Assembly (NCBI GenBank): GCA_963812035.1
Contig: CAWETG010000001.1
Span: forward strand, 654,987-718,986
From: an uncultured Gemmatimonadales bacterium
GTDB taxonomy: Bacteria > Gemmatimonadota > Gemmatimonadetes > Gemmatimonadales > JACORV01
Direction of reading: 5' to 3'
DNA: 64,000 nt
Part shown: positions 18,608 to 42,624 of the stretch, piece by piece
How positions within the stretch are numbered: position 1 is the stretch's first letter
How the letters are laid out: every line of letters starts with the position of its first letter
Program-made: the position numbers and the translations under genes
Notes under the pieces: model-generated
Database searches by the model: none
The model's input: the letters and a program-made list of their open reading frames with translations, nothing else
Told to the model about the DNA's origin: nothing

Positions 18608-18636
18608 TTGACCAGCCTATGTGACTGATCTATAAT
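18608..18636 (+). promoter_or_regulatory. sigma-70 promoter of rho
   Basis: TTGACC (18608-18613), 17-nt spacer, consensus TATAAT (18631-18636). It lies about 145 nt upstream of the rho start. Confidence 0.7.
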
Positions 18637-20037: not shown

Positions 20038-20511
20038 GTGCAGCCCGGAGGAGGAGAGCCGGGAGGAGGCCCGGACGCCGGGCGCGTGCTCGCCGTGGAC
20101 TGGGGCGGCAAGCGGTTCGGCCTTGCGCTCTCGGACCCGACCCGGCTCATCGCCCAACCCCTCGTCACGCTGACTCGCCGCGCCAATCACCGCGCCCCCG
20201 TCACCGACATCGTCGCACTCATCGCACGCCACGAAGTCACGCAGGTGGTGGTGGGCCTGCCGCTCGATCTCGAGGGCGCCGAAGGCGAGGCGGCGCGCGA
20301 GGCGCGGGCCCTGGGCGAAGCGGTGGCCCGCCGCTCCGGCGTCCTGGTGACCTACTGGGACGAGCGGCTCTCGACGGCCGCGGCCCTGCGGTCGGCGCGC
20401 GCCGCCGGCGTCCGGGACCGCGACTCGCGCGGGCGCATCGACCAGATGGCGGCCGTGGCGATCCTGCAAGGCTGGCTGGACGCGCAACGAGCGGACGGCA
20501 CGGGGGCGTGA
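20038..20511 (+). CDS. ruvX: Holliday junction resolvase-like nuclease RuvX/YqgF
   Basis: RVLAVDWGGKRFGLALSD and VVGLPLDLEG motifs. The start could instead be the GTG at 20086. Confidence 0.85.
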   Translation: MQPGGGEPGGGPDAGRVLAVDWGGKRFGLALSDPTRLIAQPLVTLTRRANHRAPVTDIVALIARHEVTQVVVGLPLDLEGAEGEAAREARALGEAVARRSGVLVTYWDERLSTAAALRSARAAGVRDRDSRGRIDQMAAVAILQGWLDAQRADGTGA

Positions 20512-20636
20512 GGATGGCACGGAGGCCCAGGGGCACAGAGGCACGGGAAGGCACACGCACTCCGGTGCCCCCGTGCCCCCGTGCCCCTGTGCCCACCGGC
20601 CTTCGTGTTCTTGTGCCCCTGTGCCTCTGTGCCCTC
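20497..20636. repeat. imperfect palindrome built from GGCACNNN / GTGCCCNN octamer units
   Basis: The left half has 5 GGCAC-containing units. The right half runs gtgcccccgtgcccccgtgcccctgtgccc...gtgcccctgtgcctctgtgccc. It spans the ruvX stop and the mltG start region. Confidence 0.8.
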
Positions 20637-21728
20637 TTGTCGGCCTGCGGCCCCGCGGCGAACGCGCCGCACGAGCGCATCATCGTGCCCAAGCGGGCGT
20701 CGCTGAAGACGGTGGCCGATTCCCTGGCCGCCCACCGCATCATCGCCTCCACTGACCGGTTTCTGCTGTCCGCGCGCCTGCTGGGCTTCCTCGTCGCCCC
20801 GTACCGGGGGCTCGACCGCCACCTGCGTCCGGGCCGCTACGACTTCCCGGTCGGTGAGAAGACGCGGACCATCCTCAGCGCGATGATCACCGGCCGCACC
20901 GACGACGACTTGTTCACGGTGCCCGAGGGCTTCACCGTCGCAGAGATGGCCGAGGCCGCCGCGAAGCGGCTCGGGATGGACAGCGTGGCGTTCCTGGCGG
21001 CGACGCGCGACTCCGCCTTGCGCGCCCGGCTCGGCATCCCGCACAACGACCGCACGATCGAGGGATACCTCTTCCCCGAGACCTACCGGGTCGTGTTCGG
21101 CGCCTCGCCGGAGCAGCTGGTGGAGCAGATGGTGCAGCAGTTCCAGGCGCAATGGGACACGGCGTGGGACGGCCGCGCCCGGCAGCTCGGACTCAGCCGG
21201 CACCAGGTCATCACCCTGGCGAGCATCGTCGAGGCAGAGGCGCGGCGGCACTCCGAGCGCCAGGTGATCGCGGGCGTGTACTACAACCGTCTCAGCCGAC
21301 GCCACCCGATGAAGCTCGAGGCCGATCCCACCGTCATCTACGCGCTCGGCCGGCACGTGAATCGGGTGCTGATCCGGGACCTCAGGATCAAGTCTCCGTA
21401 CAACACCTATCTCCACACCGGACTGCCGCCGGGCCCGATCAATTCGCCGGGCCGCGCCAGCATCCTCGCGGCGCTGTGGCCGGCCAGGCACCCGTATCTG
21501 TTCTTCGTCGCGCGCCCTGACGGGAGCCACATGTTCAGCGCGACCGGGCAGGAGCATGCGGACTCGGTGAAGGTGGCGCGCCGCCTGCGGGCCGAAGCGC
21601 AGGCCGCCAAGCGGGACAGTATTCTGGCCGCGCGGCGGGAGAGCACGGCCGTCGCCCGGCAGGGCCACGCGGCGCGGCGGGCCGCAACGCCGGACAGTGC
21701 CACGCCGCCCCCGCCACCACTCCCGTGA
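20514..21728 (+). CDS. mltG: endolytic murein transglycosylase MltG (YceG-like)
   Basis: Start placed at ATG 20514 (GTG 20613 is an alternative). LASIVEAEA (catalytic Glu), YNTYLHTGLPPGPINSPG and YLFFVA motifs are present. Confidence 0.85.
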   Translation: MARRPRGTEAREGTRTPVPPCPRAPVPTGLRVLVPLCLCALLSACGPAANAPHERIIVPKRASLKTVADSLAAHRIIASTDRFLLSARLLGFLVAPYRGLDRHLRPGRYDFPVGEKTRTILSAMITGRTDDDLFTVPEGFTVAEMAEAAAKRLGMDSVAFLAATRDSALRARLGIPHNDRTIEGYLFPETYRVVFGASPEQLVEQMVQQFQAQWDTAWDGRARQLGLSRHQVITLASIVEAEARRHSERQVIAGVYYNRLSRRHPMKLEADPTVIYALGRHVNRVLIRDLRIKSPYNTYLHTGLPPGPINSPGRASILAALWPARHPYLFFVARPDGSHMFSATGQEHADSVKVARRLRAEAQAAKRDSILAARRESTAVARQGHAARRAATPDSATPPPPPLP

Positions 21729-22360
21729 GCGCGCCGGCGTCCCTGGAGGAGGCCGTGCGCCTGGTCGTGATTCTCGACGCCGGTGTCGCGGGGGGCCGTG
21801 ACCTGGCCGCGCTCGCCGCTCAGGCGGCACGGGGCGGCGCCACGATGGTGCAGGTGCGCGCCAAGGAGGCTGCGGCGCGGGACGTGGCCGACCTGGTGCG
21901 CCGCGTGATGGCGGCGACCGCGTTGCCGGTCGTGGTGAACGACCGCCTGGACGTCGCGCTGGCCACCGGGGCGGCCGGATGCCACCTCGGGCAGGACGAC
22001 TTCCCGATCCATGCCGCGCGCGCGATCGCCCCGGCCGGCTTCTGGCTCGGCGGCTCGGCCGGCGATCCCGACGAGGCGCGCCGCGCCGCAGGCGCCGGAG
22101 CGGATTACCTGGGCATCGGACCCATCGCCGTCACCGCCAGCAAGGCGGACGCCGGAGCGGCCATCGGGGTGGAGGGCTTCCGGCGCGTGCACGCCGCGGC
22201 GCCCGGCGTGCCCGCGGTCGCCATCGGCGGCATCACCGCCGCGCTCACCCCGGCCCTGATGGCCGCCGGCGCAGCCGGCGTGGCCGTGATCCGAGCGGTT
22301 CTCGACGCACCCGACCCGGAAGAAGCCACCCACGCGGTGCGCGCGGCCGTCGGCCGATGA
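21725..22360 (+). CDS. thiE: thiamine-phosphate synthase
   Basis: VQVRAKE, VVNDRLDVALA, CHLGQDD and IGGI motifs. GTGA overlap with the mltG stop. Confidence 0.85.
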   Translation: MSAPASLEEAVRLVVILDAGVAGGRDLAALAAQAARGGATMVQVRAKEAAARDVADLVRRVMAATALPVVVNDRLDVALATGAAGCHLGQDDFPIHAARAIAPAGFWLGGSAGDPDEARRAAGAGADYLGIGPIAVTASKADAGAAIGVEGFRRVHAAAPGVPAVAIGGITAALTPALMAAGAAGVAVIRAVLDAPDPEEATHAVRAAVGR

Positions 22361-23535
22361 CCGCGTCCGCCGCCAACCCGACCGTCGTCGTCGCCCCGCG
22401 AGGCGTGGGCCGGTTGCGGGCCGGGCACCCCTGGATCTTCCGCTCCGATATCCGCGACGCCGACAGCGACACCCCGGGACTCGCCCGTCTCGTGGACGAG
22501 CGCGGCAAGGGACTCGGCACGGCGCTCTACTCGCCTGCGTCCGAGATCCGCGCGCGCTGGCTGGCGCCCGAGAGCACGGCGGTGCGCGGCGCCTGGTGGA
22601 AGGCGATGGTGGCGGCGGCCCTGGAGCGCCGGCGAGGAATCAGCGACGGCGCCTTCCGGGTGGTCCACGCCGAAGGTGACGGGCTTCCGTCGCTGATCGT
22701 GGATCGCTACGGCGACTGCGCCGTCGCGCAACTGCTCTCGGCGGGACTCGAGGCCGTGCGGGACGACGTGATCGCCGCCATCCGCGACACGCTGGCCCCT
22801 GCCGGCCTGCTGCTCAGGAACGACGCCGCCGTGCGGGAGCGCGAACGGCTGCCGCGCGAAGTCACGCTCGCCTTCGGTGCGGTGCCGCAGGAGATCACGG
22901 TGGAGGAGGCGCCGGGGATCCGCTACGTGGCGACCCCGTGGACGGGCCAGAAGACCGGCGCGTTCCTCGACCAGCGCGAGAACCGCCGGTTGCTGGGGAC
23001 GATGGCCCGAGGCCGGTGTCTCGACGCCTTCGCGTATCACGGCGGCTTTGCGCTGCACCTCGCCGGCGGCGGCGCCCGGGAGGTGGTGGCCGTGGAGATC
23101 TCCGGAGAGGCCGCGGAGCGGCTCGGGCGCAACGCCGCGCTCAACCGCTTCGACGCCGTCCGAACGGTCGAGGCGAACGCGTTCGACTGGCTGAAGGAAG
23201 CTGCGGCGGCGGGTGAGCGCTTCGACGTCGTGGTGCTCGATCCGCCGGCGTTCGCGCGGGACCGGCGCTCGCTCCCGCGGGCGCTGGCGGGCTACAAGGA
23301 GGTGAACCTGCGGGCGATGCAGCTCCTCGCGCCCGGCGGCCTCCTGTTCACCGCCTCATGCTCGCACCACGTGCACCGCGGCGATTTCTTCACGATGCTC
23401 GCCGGAGCGGCGGCCGACAGCGGCCGCCCGCTCCAGCTGCTCGAGATCCGCGGCGCGGCCGCCGATCACCCCGAGATCGTCACCATTCCGGAGACCGGTT
23501 ACCTCAAGGGTGCGCTGCTCCGCGCCGTGGACTAG
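22357..23535 (+). CDS. class I SAM-dependent rRNA methyltransferase with N-terminal PUA-like domain (RlmI-like)
   Basis: Start at ATG 22357 (ATGA overlap with thiE). GHPWIFRSDI, KTGAFLDQRENR and VVLDPPAFAR motifs are present. Confidence 0.8.
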   Translation: MTASAANPTVVVAPRGVGRLRAGHPWIFRSDIRDADSDTPGLARLVDERGKGLGTALYSPASEIRARWLAPESTAVRGAWWKAMVAAALERRRGISDGAFRVVHAEGDGLPSLIVDRYGDCAVAQLLSAGLEAVRDDVIAAIRDTLAPAGLLLRNDAAVRERERLPREVTLAFGAVPQEITVEEAPGIRYVATPWTGQKTGAFLDQRENRRLLGTMARGRCLDAFAYHGGFALHLAGGGAREVVAVEISGEAAERLGRNAALNRFDAVRTVEANAFDWLKEAAAAGERFDVVVLDPPAFARDRRSLPRALAGYKEVNLRAMQLLAPGGLLFTASCSHHVHRGDFFTMLAGAAADSGRPLQLLEIRGAAADHPEIVTIPETGYLKGALLRAVD

Positions 23536-30171: not shown

Positions 30172-30237
30172 CTACTTCTTCTTCTTCGCGGTCTTCTTTG
30201 CCGTCTTCTTGGCGGCCTTCTTCTTCTTCATCGCCAT
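30172..30237 (-). CDS. candidate 21-aa lysine-rich micropeptide MAMKKKKAAKKTAKKTAKKKK
   Basis: Below the ORF-track size cutoff. ATG 30237 is preceded by GAGGAGG (4-nt spacing). 12 of 21 codons are AAG, in a GC-rich genome. TAG stop at 30172, then a GC hairpin 17 nt downstream. Confidence 0.45.
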   Translation of the reverse strand: MAMKKKKAAKKTAKKTAKKKK

Positions 30238-38025: not shown

Positions 38026-39647
38026 GACTCCGGGGACGGCTCCTCGGGCTTCTTCTTCGACCGGCTGCGCGCGGCCGGACGCCGCCCGGCGCCGCCCCGC
38101 GCGCGCCGGCGCGCCGGTGGCTTCGCCTTGTCCGGCGTCGCCGGCTCCGCGGCGTCAACTTCCACGATCCCCACCATGGGCACACCCGCGGCCGAAGCCG
38201 CCGGACGCACCGAGCCGCGGCGGTAGCGGATCCCGCGGGCCGGTCCGGCGTGGCCGGCTGAAGGCGACGGCGCGACCGGCGCCGAGGGCGTGGCGGGCAG
38301 CGCAGGTGCCGCCGTCGCCGTCGCAGGTTCCACGACCTTTTCCGCGTGGTCCGCGACCCTGCCCCTGCCGCGGCCCCGGCCGCGGCGCCCACCGCGCCCG
38401 CCATGGGCCTCGGGTTCCGCGGGCACGGGCGCGGGCGCCGCTTCACCCTTCAGCGCCACCTCGAAGCCGCGCTCGTTCTTGGCCAGATCCACCAGCTCGG
38501 CGTCGTGCGCCTGGCGGAGCAGACGGCCGAACCGGGGCCGGTGGAACAGCGGATCCTGGGCGTTCCCGTGCAGCGCCTCCATCCGCTCGCGCACGATGTC
38601 CTCGTCTACGACCGTGGGCGCGAACGCCCCCACCTCACGCAGTGCCCGCTTCAGCAACTCGAACGCCTCCGCCAGCGACAGCGGAGCCACTCCGGAAGCT
38701 CCCGTCGCCGGCTTCTCGTGGGCCGGCTCCGGCGCGGGTCCGCGACCGCGTCCGCCGCGCCGCCCGCGGCGCGCCCGTTCCCCTCCCGGCAGCGCCTGCT
38801 CCCGGTCGTGCTCGGCGCGCTCCTGCCCGCGCCGCTCGTCCGCCCCGCCGGGAATCGGCGGCAGCGCCCGCTCCCCGCCGGGGGCCGAAGAGCCCAGGTC
38901 GATCTCGTACTGCCCGTTGTCGAGCTTGGTCGCGGTCAGCAGTCCCCGGCGCTTCGCCTCGTCCACGAACTTCGAGAACCGGCTCATCCCGACGTTCTTC
39001 TCGTCGAACGATGCATCCAGCTCCTGCATCACCTGCTTGAGCCGGTCCGAGCGCATCACGTCGCCGCGCTTCTTCATTTCCAGCACGGCGTCCACCACCA
39101 GCTCCCACGGATCGCGCCGCACACCCTCGTCCTCGCCGGCGCGGGCCAGGCCGGCCAGCTCGTTGTACGAGAAGTACTCGTCGCAGTTCTGGATCAGCAG
39201 GTCAGACGCCGACTCGCGGATGCCCACCCCGATGATGTACTTGCCGTACTCCTTGAGCTTGATCACCAGAGACGAGAAATCGGAATCCCCCGACAGGAGG
39301 ATGATCGTCCCGATCTCAGGCCGAGTGAAGACCAGCTCGACGGCGTCGATGGCCAGCCGGATGTCGGTGGCGTTCTTCTTGTTGGAGCCGAAGGCCGGCG
39401 CGAAGATCAGGTCGATCGACGCTTCCGACAGCGGCACGATGTACTGCGGATAGCGGCGCCAGTCAGCATACGCCCGCTGGACGGCCACCTTCCCCCGGAT
39501 GACTTCCGAGTTCATCAGCTTCCGCAGCTCGACCTGGAGATCGGAGCGGATGCCCATCGTGACGTTGTCGAAATCGATCAACAGTGCGGCATTCGGCGCA
39601 TGCGCCGGCGGCTGTTTGCTCGCCGGACGCGGAGACGGAAAGGTCAT
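38022..39647 (-). CDS. NYN (LabA-like) nuclease domain + two OST-HTH/LOTUS-like domains + Arg/Gly-rich tails
   Basis: NYN: LIDFDNV...KNATDIRLAIDA...LLSGDSDFSSLV. LOTUS-like: RSDRLKQVMQELDASFDEKNVGMSRFSKFVDEA. Low-complexity tracts RRGRRGGRGRG and GGRGGRRGRGRGRGR. Confidence 0.75.
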   Translation of the reverse strand: MTFPSPRPASKQPPAHAPNAALLIDFDNVTMGIRSDLQVELRKLMNSEVIRGKVAVQRAYADWRRYPQYIVPLSEASIDLIFAPAFGSNKKNATDIRLAIDAVELVFTRPEIGTIILLSGDSDFSSLVIKLKEYGKYIIGVGIRESASDLLIQNCDEYFSYNELAGLARAGEDEGVRRDPWELVVDAVLEMKKRGDVMRSDRLKQVMQELDASFDEKNVGMSRFSKFVDEAKRRGLLTATKLDNGQYEIDLGSSAPGGERALPPIPGGADERRGQERAEHDREQALPGGERARRGRRGGRGRGPAPEPAHEKPATGASGVAPLSLAEAFELLKRALREVGAFAPTVVDEDIVRERMEALHGNAQDPLFHRPRFGRLLRQAHDAELVDLAKNERGFEVALKGEAAPAPVPAEPEAHGGRGGRRGRGRGRGRVADHAEKVVEPATATAAPALPATPSAPVAPSPSAGHAGPARGIRYRRGSVRPAASAAGVPMVGIVEVDAAEPATPDKAKPPARRRARGGAGRRPAARSRSKKKPEEPSPES

Positions 39648-39655
39648 GGACTCCT

Positions 39656-41224
39656 TCAGGAGGCTGTGTGTTCCAGCGCGACGACCTGCGCCAGTTCGCG
39701 ACGCTTTACCTTCCCGCTCGCCGTCAACGGGAGTGCGTCGAAGAACCGCACCAGGTCGGGCACCTTGTAGTCGGCCATCTGCTTCCGGGCGAAGTCCGTG
39801 ATGTCCTCGCCCCGGAGGATGGCGCCCTCAGTCGGTACGACACAGGCGCACACCATCTCACCGAGGATGTCGTGGGGGACGCCCACCACGCAGACCTCCT
39901 CGACGCCAGGATGCGCCCGCAGCACATCTTCCACTTCGCGCGGGTAAACGTTGTAGCCGCCCCGGATGATCATCTCCTTGCGGCGCCCGACGATCCGCAC
40001 GTAGCCGTCTGCTTCCAGCATCGCCAGGTCGCCGGTGAGGAAGAACCCCTCCGGCGTAAAGGAGCGCCGGGTCTCGGCCGGCATCCGGTGGTACCCAGAC
40101 ATCACGTTCGGCCCCTTGACCGCCAGCTCGCCCACGGCCTCGACGCCGTGCAGCTCGCCGGTGGTCACGTCCACGATCCGCAACTCCACGCCCGGCAGCG
40201 GCCGTCCCACTGTCTCCACCCGGCGGTCCGGCGGGTCGTCGGCCCGGGTGAGCGTGACCGTCGGCCCCGTCTCGGTCAGGCCGTAGGCGATCTCGACGTT
40301 GCACGTGCGCCGTACCTCCGTGACCAGGTCGGGCTGGACCGGGCTGCCGGCAATGATCCCCGTCCTGAGCTGCGGCAGCCGCGCCCGCGCGAAGCCGGGC
40401 TGCCGCACCAGAAGGTGGAACATCGTCGGCACCCCGTGACACACGGTCACCCGTTCCCGCACCATCAACTCGACCGTCGCGGCGGGGTCGAACCGCTCGT
40501 CGAGTGCCAGGGTCGCGCCGGCCGCGACCGCGCCCGCCATCACGCTGGTGCCGAAGATCGTGAAGAACGGCACCGCTGCCAGCACCACGTCGTCCGCCGT
40601 GACCCCCAGCGCCCCCGCCACCGCCACCGCTGTCCCCACCACGTTGCGGTGCGAGAGACACACGCCCTTGGGTTTGCCCATCGTGCCCGACGTGTACAGG
40701 ATCGCGAACGTCGCGTCAGGATCACGCGGGCCCGCCGGCGCCTCGAGCCGGGCCCCCTTCGATACCAGGTCCCGGTACGGGAAGACCCGGTCGTCGTACC
40801 AGTAGTCACCGCCGCCGACGGCGACGAGGTACTGGACGTCGGGCAGCTCGGCGATCAACTCGTCGAACAGCTCCACGAAGTCCCTTCCCCCGTGGCTCTC
40901 GGCGGTCACCACCACCGAAGCCTCGGCATGGCGCAACTGGTACGTGAGCTCGTGGTGCCCCAGCCCGGGATTGATGGGAACCAGCACCGCGCCGAGCCGC
41001 GCCGCGGCCAGGGCGGTGGTGAGCCACTCCGGCCAGTTGGGCAGGTTGACGGCGATCGTGTCGCCGGCCTCGATGCCAAGATCGGCGAGGGCTGCGGCGA
41101 AGGCGTCGGCATCACGGCTTGCTTGCGCGTAGGTTAGGCGCCGGTCCCCGCTGACGGTGAACGGCCGCTCAGGATACCGCGCCACGGCGGCGTCGAAAAC
41201 GTCGGCCAGATGAACCGATGGCAA
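39656..41224 (-). CDS. AMP-dependent acyl-CoA synthetase/ligase
   Basis: [17 protein letters not shown] and GKVKRREL motifs. There is no ATG near the N-terminus, so I placed the start at TTG 41224. The start is uncertain. Confidence 0.8.
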
Positions 41225-41337
41225 CGACCTGCCCCCACGCAACGCAAGCAGGGAATTGTACTCACCGCCGGGACCGCTGGCCAGCCGCCGACCTGGCGTC
41301 CCTTGAGGCGCCGGAGCGCCCGACCCCATATTGGCGC

Positions 41338-42624
41338 GTGGCCCTGGCCTTCCGCCGCAGCATTTTCGTCTGGCTCGTCGTGGTCGCGGCGATCCCCGCC
41401 GGCGTCGGCGTCGGGGTGACGCTGCTCGCCCCGCGGCTCGCGGTGCCGGTCGGCGGCGTCGCCGCCTGGGACCGGGCCGGCGCGACGTGGCGCAACGTCG
41501 ACAGCGCGCTCGCCCACCAGAATCTTCCGGCCGCTGCGCGCGCGGCACTGGCGCGCCACCGCGACGAGCTCAGCAACTCGGTGGGGCGCGCGCACCAAAG
41601 CCTGTTCATCCGCAACGCCGTGGCGGCCGCGCTCGGGGGAGTGGTCGCGGCCCTCGCCGCGCTCGTCGCCCTGGGCACCCTCCGCCTCGCCGGCCACCTG
41701 TCGCGTCAGTTGTCGCGTCCGATCGACGAGTTGATCGCCTGGACCGGGCGCCTGACGCGTGGCGAGCCGCTGCCGGACACGCCTCCGGCCAAGGGCGCGC
41801 CCGAGTTCGACGTGCTGCGCAACGCGTTCCGCACCATGGCCGCGGACCTGGCCGCGGCGCGCGCGCGCGACGTGGAGGCCGCGCAGCTCCGGGCCTTCCG
41901 CGACCTCGCCCGCCAGGTGGCCCACGAGCTCAAGAACCCGCTCACGCCGCTGCGCTTCGCCACGTCGCGCCTCACCCAGGAAGCGCGGCCCGACCAGCGC
42001 GAGCTGCTCGAGATCATCGACGGCGAGAGCGAGCGCATCGAGCAGATGGCGAGGGACTTCGCCACCCTGGGCCGGCTGCCCGAAGGACCGCCCGCGGCCG
42101 TCGACCTCGGTGAGCTAGTCGAGACCCTCGTCAAGGGCACTGTGCCTCCCGGCATCGCCGTGCGCATCGATCGGGCGCCGGACCTGCCGATGGTGAGTGC
42201 CCACTACGAGCCGCTGCGCCGGGCGCTGCACAATCTGGTGCTGAACGCATGCGACGCCTGCGAAGCGGCGGGCACGGGGGCACGGGGGCACGGGGGCACG
42301 GACGAGCCGGCGGGCACCGGGCCACGGGGGCACGGGGGCACGGAGGCGGCCACCGCGCCGGCGATCAACATCGCGCTCCGCGCAGTGGCCAACGGCGCCG
42401 CGCCCGCCGTGCAGGTCGTGATCGCGGACACGGGCGTCGGCATCCCGCCCGAGCAGCTGGGCCGGATCTTCGAGCCGTACTTCACCACCAAGGCGAAGGG
42501 AACCGGCCTGGGCCTGGCGCTGGTGCGCCAGACGATCCACGACCACGGGGGCTCGATCGGCGTGGCGAGCGAGCCGGGTCGCGGCACGACGTTCACCATC
42601 ACGCTGCCCTTGGCGCGCGCATGA
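41338..42624 (+). CDS. NtrY-like sensor histidine kinase (2 TM, HAMP, HisKA, HATPase)
   Basis: H-box [13 protein letters not shown]-box [11 protein letters not shown]-boxes DTGVGI and GTGLGLA. Start placed at GTG 41338 because ATG 41218 would overlap the divergent ligase start. Confidence 0.8.
42268..42343 (+). repeat. tandem GGGGCACG octamer tract, duplicated block, in frame inside the kinase gene
   Basis: gcgggcacgggggcacgggggcacgggggcacgg is followed after 8 nt by gcgggcaccgggccacgggggcacgggggcacgg. The tract encodes [25 protein letters not shown] between the N-box and G1-box. Confidence 0.85.

Follow-up and report, generated by a model that had tools for sequence, protein, structure and literature searches.

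Closest described repeat systems

The junction between ruvX and mltG in a 64,000-nucleotide window from an uncultured Gemmatimonadales bacterium (contig CAWETG010000001.1) carries an octamer-repeat palindrome, in which a G-rich arm and a C-rich arm of 8-nt units face each other across a short loop. With a probability of roughly 0.6, this tract is one member of a dispersed family of octamer arrays, here as a palindromic pair, located in frame at the 5' end of mltG as a tolerated, rapidly replaced insertion. The closest published precedent found is that of Geobacter metallireducens, for which Aklujkar et al. (2009, PMC2700814) describe a four-fold GGGACCG heptamer with 49 copies between and within genes as well as a four-fold GTTGCTYN octamer at 48 sites, mostly in opposite-strand pairs at variable distance. 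The function of these elements is unknown, and those authors proposed them to be regulator sites or RNA elements (PMC2700814). The Geobacter elements resemble the arrays considered here in their units of ~7 to 8 nt, their runs of about four units, their tens of copies per genome, and their paired-array architecture. They differ in phylum and unit sequence, and neither an in-frame translation into signal peptides or domain loops nor a hypervariable cassette at an orthologous junction is reported for them.

The heptamers of the cyanobacterial STRR type and the TAACTGA repeats of Beggiatoaceae, Cyanobacteria, and Bacteroidetes occur at ~100 to 170 loci in arrays of 2 to ~40 copies, often just upstream of start codons, and the unit is found across phyla without an evident transfer mechanism (MacGregor 2015, PMC4679880). 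Arrays of the GGGGCACG octamer, to which the tract belongs according to this reading, likewise consist of dispersed tandem units near start codons with an unexplained spread across phyla, and they lie beside STRR-like heptamers. In contrast to the octamer arrays, among which inverted pairs and in-frame copies are common, the STRR and TAACTGA repeats are AT rich and mainly intergenic, with 169 direct sets compared to one indirect set (PMC4679880). The octamer arrays show the head-to-tail unit of ~7 to 8 nt and the many unlinked loci of dispersed short tandem repeats but not their predominantly intergenic location. Dispersed short tandem repeats of bacteria (STRR, TAACTGA, and Geobacter) have been known for decades, yet to our knowledge no mechanism or function is established for them.

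Rickettsia palindromic elements (RPE) are in-frame palindromic insertions in unrelated genes that extend the host protein by a peptide segment and do not destroy it (PMC10969869). A palindromic insertion that keeps the frame of its host is also found here, in 14 of 15 junctions and in two palindromic pairs inside domains of DnaE2. According to their descriptions, RPE are set apart by a length of ~100 to 150 bp, by a family-specific unique sequence in place of tandem 8-nt units, and by another host lineage. REP, BIME, and REPIN sequences are mobilized by RAYT and form high-copy, lineage-specific, inverted-pair hairpins at gene ends or between convergent genes (PMC3333891, PMC3733652). Hairpin-forming inverted pairs and gene-end positions are common to both groups. 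The REP unit, however, is an imperfect palindrome of 20 to 40 nt with a GTAG/CGTC tag and an extragenic location, whereas the GGGGCACG octamer is non-palindromic, shows no tag at the array ends, and lies within genes in many cases. REP, BIME, and REPIN sequences affect the mRNA stability and translation of neighboring genes.

Translational coupling through a stop/start overlap and a stem that occludes the start is known from the coat and replicase genes of phage MS2 and from ribosomal-protein operons. The ruvX/mltG junction shares with these systems an NTGA overlap and a start codon enclosed in a stable predicted stem, which ribosomes terminating just upstream could open. Here, however, the stem has more than 60 pairs, is built of repeats, lies inside the downstream open reading frame (ORF), and is missing from close relatives. 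Compared with these systems, the tract is a short-unit dispersed repeat of a known kind with the additional features of polar (G-first) palindromes, probable translation, and a hypervariable cassette at an orthologous site.

Architecture of the ruvX/mltG tract

The source genome is sampled over the 64 kb of the window, and E-values and z-scores are given as tool output as run; the coordinates of the features are collected in Table 1. The first-pass annotation, made from the letters of the window, had described five GGCAC-containing units followed by a series of octamers, which together form an imperfect inverted repeat across the ruvX stop and a candidate start of mltG. This geometry is borne out. 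Within the G-rich arm, GGCAC begins at positions 20497, 20516, 20533, 20541, and 20550. The C-rich arm is divided into nine 8-nt slots of GTGCCCNN, seven of which begin with GTGCC, while the two at 20597-20612 are degenerate. The inverted-repeat arms of 30 to 47 nt show a complementarity of 70 to 83% and constitute the longest inverted repeat in the 64 kb. Tandem Repeats Finder (TRF) reports a period of 8 with 8.8 copies and 73% matches at 20565-20634, and at most two or three consecutive units are perfect. The two-unit 14-mer, with up to 2 mismatches allowed, occurs 12 times in the window compared to 3.4 ± 1.8 times in shuffled sequences, with none of 100 shuffles reaching 12. All 12 matches are confined to the ruvX/mltG tract and to the array at 42270-42347, in agreement with the recurrence of the octamer noted earlier near 42.3 kb.

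The independent Logan assembly of run ERR10755942 (L110; compared sequences are referred to by L numbers) shows no difference from window positions 20421-22728, repeat included. Because of this identity, the tract is not an assembly artefact; the orthologous arrays of relatives also speak against one.

Probable translation of the palindrome and the signal peptide of MltG

The last four ruvX codons (Gly-Thr-Gly-Ala) and the TGA stop at 20509-20511 sit in the first unit of the G-rich arm. The codon GTG 20508 overlaps this stop (GTGA, 20508-20511) in the frame of mltG, and the alternative start ATG 20514, which the first-pass annotation had considered, follows two codons on in the same frame; the stop and both candidate starts are contained in the G-rich arm. 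Read from there, the G-rich arm codes for an Arg/Gly/Thr/Glu-rich start of MltG (VRMARRPRGTEAREGTRT), and the outer units of the C-rich arm, with the C-to-T changes GTGCCCCT GTGCCTCT GTGCCCTC, code for the hydrophobic core VPLCLCAL. By inspection, the predicted N terminus is composed of an unusually long, positively charged n-region, the h-region VLVPLCLCALL, and the lipobox LSAC and has the layout of a lipoprotein-type signal peptide, with a charged n-region, an h-region, and a lipobox of the form [LVI][ASTVI][GAS]C. The lipobox is kept in all orthologues. The public annotation of mltG starts at GTG 20613 (P0001, 371 aa) and leaves MPLCLCALLSAC, a 12-residue leader without a charged n-region. 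This call seems to drop most of the probable signal peptide. Across the clade, the start of mltG is placed inconsistently by gene callers, as for P0004, P0011, P0121, and P0158.

Twenty further junctions were read as DNA. A metagenome scan with MltG gave ~7 close relatives, and the remaining sequences, with 33 to 46% identity, were used as outgroups. Of the 15 junctions with enough sequence, 14 have a start codon that overlaps the ruvX stop (NTGA or TGATG) and shares the frame of the lipobox cysteine. This frame is kept across very different insert lengths: the distance from the start to the lipobox ranges from 15 to 48 codons and the insert from 0 to ~32 codons. L199, L200, and L201 are also in frame, with 16, 49, and 47 codons, respectively, according to called gene coordinates and product N termini. 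The gain or loss of an 8-nt unit shifts the frame, yet the frame is consistent, which argues for translation of the whole stretch from the overlapping start. The same conservation argues that the Pro/Val/Cys-rich N-terminal extension predicted from ATG 20514 is translated, that start being usable. Most likely, translation runs through the whole palindrome and yields a lipoprotein signal peptide of unusual length, in which the G-rich arm would provide the Arg/Gly-rich n-region and the C-rich arm, tuned by C-to-T changes, would provide the hydrophobic core.

Replacement and co-change of the arms in related genomes

The cassette is replaced or lost between genomes that are ~95% identical. L199, L200, and L201 show 94.5 to 96% identity overall and are near-identical just outside the junction. 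L199 has an empty allele (VKRAALGLCLLLAAC), L200 has a long GGGGCAC-type palindrome, and L201 has a GACGCAC-type palindrome; the signal-peptide codons adjoining the insert also differ among the three. Alignments of filled with empty alleles (L199 versus L200 and L201; L132 versus L131) show no clear target-site duplication of the kind that flanks the terminal inverted repeats of a MITE, and the adjoining signal-peptide codons are replaced together with the insert. The first-pass annotation had also raised the possibility of a polymorphism in repeat number. Single-unit changes are not seen; instead, close relatives differ by whole blocks in multiples of 3 nt. In one protein cluster at a level of at least 90%, all eleven strains have a 392-aa product and differ by substitutions only. 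L112 and L117 are 100% identical over 5.8 kb and represent the same strain, which makes this pair uninformative on polymorphism. Decayed arms with z-scores of about 0 are found in L119, L120, and L123. Across the 21 kb of the syntenic loci, arrays are confined to the ruvX/mltG junction.

The arms remain complementary and change together between species: GGACGCAC is found with GTGCGTCC in L116 and L118, and GGGGGCAC is found with GTGCCCCC or GUGCCUCU in the window and L115. Hairpin z-scores range from -4.2 to -7.0 in the insert-bearing orthologues, compared to +1.0 and -0.3 in the insert-free L113 and L114. In an alignment of eight species, the consensus helix consists of 28 pairs, 9 of which show compensatory changes, and 87% of its cells are paired. 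It scores 0.231 for covariation, compared to 0.166 ± 0.023 in shuffles, 2 of 500 of which reach this value, and at most 0.152 with slid partners. The support from covariation is modest, as relatedness or DNA-level concerted evolution between the arms could produce the signal. A cross-species duplex-energy matrix, which is confounded by arm length and contains wrong helices at four loci, was used only for the contrast between the GGGGCAC and GACGCAC types. In 8 of 10 loci, the RNA fold of the sense strand is more stable than that of the antisense strand, and the sense fold is richer in G-U pairs. This asymmetry also follows from the C-to-T changes that turn (VPPCPRAP)n into VPLCLCAL.

Distant Gemmatimonadota, whose MltG is 44 to 46% identical, have palindromes of unrelated units at the ruvX/mltG junction. 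L124 and L127 contain the 9-mer (GGGCGGAGA)4 in the ruvX tail and (CTCTCCGCC)4 coding for FLSALSAVSALSAC, with z-scores of -7.5 and -8.9. L130 shows a GCGTGGGGCGTG-type stem around the start codon (z-score of -4.0), and L131 has (GGAACGCG)n and its complement (z-score of -2.1); the near-identical partner of L131, L132, is empty. Nothing comparable is found at the junctions of low-GC distant relatives. At the 3' end of mltG, the related contigs L127 (1102-1205) and L124 (1290-1370) have a palindromic pair at the same position but with unrelated units: one contig combines (GGGCAGCG)n with (GCCCCGCC)n, and the other combines a GGTGAAC-type arm with (ACCGTTC)4.

A dispersed octamer family in Gemmatimonadales

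The octamer family is present at many loci, some of which lie in frame within conserved domains. Its members are tandem arrays of GGGGCACG, with the unit GGGGCAC[G/A] and the variants GGAGGCAC and GGACGCAC. By inspection, the octamer is free of stop codons in all six frames. A scan of one genome per species with a three-unit 22-mer identified at least 109 genome blocks, ~40 of which belong to roughly 12 Gemmatimonadales metagenome-assembled genomes (MAGs); as the scan selects on the pattern, the statistics of array context are biased. Arrays recur at unlinked loci of one genome: MFD01299.bin.1.239 has them in 17 or more distinct 8-kb blocks and CBDFJJ01 in 20 or more. MFD01299.bin.1.239 is the closest relative among the matches listed, with 78 to 86% nucleotide identity. 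It is syntenic with the window and has arrays at both window sites, in the histidine kinase gene (L072) and at ruvX/mltG (L111).

The array at 42270-42347 is oriented opposite to that of the ruvX/mltG junction and lies inside a histidine kinase gene (41218-42624, plus strand). It is in frame in HATPase_c and lengthens the Pfam domain by ~29 residues. In L072, the orthologous kinase gene contains just the first 4 units at this site. This in-frame insertion into the kinase domain, together with the lineage-wide dispersal of the family and the predicted lipoprotein signal peptide encoded by the C-rich arm, goes beyond what the first-pass annotation had described.

In high-GC MAGs, four kinds of array position are observed. 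Arrays are found directly after a stop codon and before the next start; in frame within genes, as in the histidine kinase of the window and in DnaE2, ImuB, and an ImuA-like protein of L079; as palindromic pairs inside the PHP and HHH_6 domains of DnaE2, each lengthened by ~22 residues; and as a palindromic pair between convergent genes. Among arrays with both flanks coding on one strand, the G-rich strand is sense in 17 cases and antisense in 3. The G- or purine-rich arm comes first in every palindromic pair seen, which amounts to ~12 independent cases. Coding context in the 8-kb blocks was derived from GC periodicity, not from gene calls; by this measure, most arrays in MAGs of 70 to 74% GC are flanked on one or both sides by coding-type periodicity, and a predominantly intergenic location is seen only in the 61% GC MAG CBDFJJ01.

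The densest cluster seen is located in L079 (1-8000; CAWDZR010000029.1, 192-200 kb), where a mutasome cassette of imuA-like, imuB, and dnaE2 genes contains at least 7 octamer arrays in 8 kb, including four palindromic pairs, two of which are in frame within the PHP/HHH_6 domains of DnaE2. L076 (2599-2760) has five adjoining arrays, composed of GGGGCACG x3, GGGGGCGC x3, (GGTGCTCG)8, (GCACCCA)4, and CACCTAA repeats, among them a G-first palindromic pair of a different unit. In L070 (7342-7470), a stop codon is followed by a G arm and a C arm running into RARLFLPLCLCALWLSC, which resembles a lipoprotein leader close to the end of the locus and is a candidate for a second gene-start case. A six-frame motif hunt for other signal peptides derived from the C arm, which is noisy in 70% GC DNA, gave L070 as the only candidate.

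Outside Gemmatimonadales, the 22-mer is found, usually in intergenic positions, in Bacteroidales, Flavobacteriaceae, a cyanobacterium, Lysobacterales, Planctomycetota, and Streptomyces, and it is also present in Omnitrophota. The cross-phylum loci of the GGGGCACG 22-mer, with 44 to 56% GC, include L006, L011, L020, L024, L029, L049, L083, L017, L021, and L096, among others, and they adjoin other short tandem arrays (CTGGTCA, CCCCAGT, and GGGCATAA). A phage origin is unsupported, with two 22-mer matches in 2.9 million IMG/VR contigs. A literature search for the octamer returned only papers quoting a GC-clamp primer for denaturing gradient gel electrophoresis with a single GGGGCACGGGGGG, which are irrelevant here, and a search for such repeats in Gemmatimonadota found nothing specific, which is not proof of absence.

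Predicted hairpin, G-quadruplex motif, and proposed translational coupling

The long mRNA hairpin over the mltG initiation region that had been anticipated by the first-pass annotation is recovered by RNA folding with a z-score of -6.2. The plus-strand RNA of 20490-20650 folds into a single hairpin, and none of 200 shuffles is as stable. Folding with DNA parameters gives about -50 kcal/mol for both strands, with z-scores of -5.1 and -4.5. The other structure proposed there, a G-quadruplex (G4) on the minus strand, stands as a motif but not as the main feature of the tract. Canonical G4 motifs, defined by four runs of at least 3 G and loops of 1 to 7 nt, are found at 20568-20594 on the minus strand and at 42270-42296 and 42312-42338 on the plus strand, the latter two on the sense strand of the kinase array. 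The window contains 9 such motifs compared to 7.5 ± 2.6 expected from a first-order Markov model, which is no enrichment. G4-aware folding, based on RNA parameters only, chooses the hairpin on either strand, with -100.5 and -109.2 kcal/mol. With the same parameters, the isolated G-rich arm reaches -18.4 kcal/mol with a two-tetrad G4 and -14.7 kcal/mol without it, a gain of ~4 kcal/mol. The hairpin is predicted to outcompete the minus-strand G4.

At permissive E-values, Rfam returns only sub-threshold matches to generic microRNA precursors, with 19 to 37 bits compared to gathering scores of 60 to 168, and points to no known RNA family. An intrinsic terminator was considered and rejected, as the terminator scan leaves the junction without a site and the stem is not followed by a T run.

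In the proposed mechanism, the mRNA hairpin (~ -109 kcal/mol) would bury the start of mltG, and the synthesis of MltG would require ribosomes terminating at the ruvX stop to unwind the stem, a coupling of termination and reinitiation. The stop/start overlap typical of translational coupling is present as GTGA at 20508-20511 and as NTGA or TGATG in 14 other junctions. According to the folding predictions, the hairpin probably makes mltG translation depend on ruvX. The element would persist since the C-terminal tail of RuvX and the signal peptide of MltG form one permissive site in a tightly overlapped operon, with no requirement for the hairpin itself. If only the RuvX tail and the MltG signal peptide tolerate such insertions, this would explain why the junction is the sole array site in 21 kb of synteny. 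Arrays may be seeded or renewed by slippage, by template switching between the arms, or by ectopic conversion.

Origin and role of the palindrome

Several points weigh against the tract being a tolerated copy of a dispersed repeat. The window's own genome contributes 2 array loci in 64 kb, and the size of the family is extrapolated from relatives. L131 is an exception to the kept frame, with an in-frame TAG directly before the lipobox Cys codon (about 1610-1625); in this sole contig with the (GGAACGCG)n palindrome, the TAG could reflect a sequencing error, a pseudogene, or a different start. Translation of mltG may instead begin at GTG 20589, with a signal peptide of a normal 20 residues, and something else may underlie the in-frame pattern. 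Neither a target-site duplication nor a transposase or other spreading mechanism was identified, with the ORFs of the window not scanned for RAYT (PF01797). Finally, the palindromes of unrelated units at the junction and the compensatory changes are at least as compatible with a structure under selection as with a passenger that is tolerated. Such a structure would be a cis-regulatory device of the ruvX-mltG junction, acting by coupling, attenuation, or mRNA processing or stability, in which the structure is conserved while the lineage-specific units turn over. This is possible, though on balance doubtful. The long hairpins at the same junction in L124, L127, L130, and L131, the arms that change together in L116 and L118, the more stable and G-U-richer sense fold, and the position of the junction as the sole array site in 21 kb are consistent with it. 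However, empty alleles with ordinary short signal peptides exist in near-identical backgrounds (L199 compared to L200 and L201; L132 compared to L131), about half of the Gemmatimonadota junctions are without a significant hairpin, and the arms have decayed in L119, L120, and L123. Protein-level selection for Leu/Cys codons in the C-rich arm can also account for the G-U excess, and palindromes of the same kind lie inside enzymes such as DnaE2, where a role of this type is implausible.

An origin of the palindrome in place is unlikely; here, octamer-like signal-peptide codons (GTGCGCCTGTGCCTCTGTGCC, as in L113) would have been copied in reverse orientation by template switching and both arms then expanded by slippage, in place of the insertion of a dispersed element. 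The insert-free L113 does have three GTGC units at 8-nt spacing, coding for VRLCLCA, and the lineage of L124 and L127 uses different units at different loci and at the same mltG 3' position, for which local generation fits better than one mobile family. Against this origin, related MAGs carry the identical octamer at dozens of loci that are not linked, some of them without a signal peptide. In addition, orthologues outside the octamer-bearing clade are without the LCLCAL motif, and the truly empty allele of L199 has no octamer periodicity. It is very improbable that the tract acts through the minus-strand G4 or as an unstable contingency repeat that tunes mltG by the number of units. A canonical motif is present at 20568-20594, the gain or loss of one unit shifts the frame because 8 nt cannot be divided by 3, and close relatives differ in length at the level of blocks. 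Nevertheless, the predictions favor the hairpin over the G4 for either strand, the window shows no enrichment of G4 motifs, and the mRNA bears the C-rich complement at the G4 site; moreover, 14 of 15 junctions are in frame and the eleven strains of one cluster have the same length. With only two or three consecutive perfect units, the tract is also a poor substrate for slippage. That the repeat arose as an artefact of assembly or sequencing is in practice excluded. Tandem repeats of high GC content are prone to errors and the window stems from a MAG, but apart from the identical Logan assembly, orthologous arrays recur across many samples, assemblers, and platforms (ENA megahit, JGI, and long-read MAGs), and the reading frame is kept.

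Genomic context and coordinates

The genes rho, ruvX, mltG, thiE, and those that follow are co-directional. mltG and thiE overlap by 4 nt (GTGA at 21725-21728), and 4-nt overlaps are also found between later genes and, likewise, in the orthologous loci. A sigma-70-like promoter match (TTGACC, 17 nt, TATAAT; 11/12) is located at 18608-18636, ~145 nt upstream of rho (18781). Other tandem repeats of the window are found at 30177-30228 and 38067-38117, consisting of TCTTCTTCGCGG x3.7 and of a GCGCGCGCCCG-type unit x4.5 that has overlapping palindromes.

Table 1. Coordinates of the octamer tract, its predicted structures, the adjoining genes, and the second array in the window
Feature	Position	Strand	Description and basis
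Octamer-repeat palindrome	20497-20636	+	G-rich arm, 4-nt loop, C-rich arm; sequence
G-rich 5' arm	20497-20560	+	Five GGCAC-containing, partly degenerate octamer units; sequence, inverted repeats, fold, frame analysis
Apical loop TCCG	20561-20564	+	RNA and DNA minimum-free-energy structures
C-rich 3' arm	20565-20636	+	Nine 8-nt slots of GTGCCCNN; TRF, direct repeats, translation
Full predicted hairpin	20491-20630	+	RNA, -109.2 kcal/mol, z -6.2; DNA, -50.4 kcal/mol, z -5.1
Canonical G4 motif	20568-20594	-	G3 CACA G4 CAC G5 CAC G5; complement of inner C-arm units; regex scan, G4-aware folding
ruvX (YqgF)	20038-20511	+	ORF list; Pfam RuvX PF03652, E 2e-37, residues 16-148 of 157
mltG (YceG family), start proposed here	20508-21728	+	Pfam YceG PF02618, E 2e-80
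Lipobox Leu-Ser-Ala-Cys	20637-20648	+	Cys codon 20646-20648; end of the predicted lipoprotein signal peptide; translation, orthologue conservation
Second family copy, (GGGCACGG)n, 4 + 3 units	42270-42347	+	TRF period 8, 9.5 copies, 82% matches

Implications

A broader and rather speculative suggestion is that Gemmatimonadota have an undescribed process or class of elements that builds G-first palindromes from tandem units of 7 to 9 nt. These palindromes would be repeatedly installed or renewed at the same permissive sites, where they would supply or remodel signal peptides and lock downstream translation to that of the upstream gene. An in-frame palindrome may then serve as a ready-made export module, with the n-region from the G arm and the core from the C arm, in which C-to-T changes keep the pairing of the mRNA through G-U pairs. 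The ruvX-mltG junction may be a hotspot or a selected site common to lineages with unrelated units.

Under the favored reading of a tolerated, rapidly replaced repeat copy, the junction offers a natural series of alleles at a single orthologous site, from empty through short and long to decayed, among genomes that are ~95% identical. Repeats of this kind can, as the kept frame suggests, be translated, both inside genes of an essential type and within a signal peptide. The strict polarity of the arms, the allele series, and the translation of the insert would make the origin of these arrays, their turnover, and their effect on expression directly testable.

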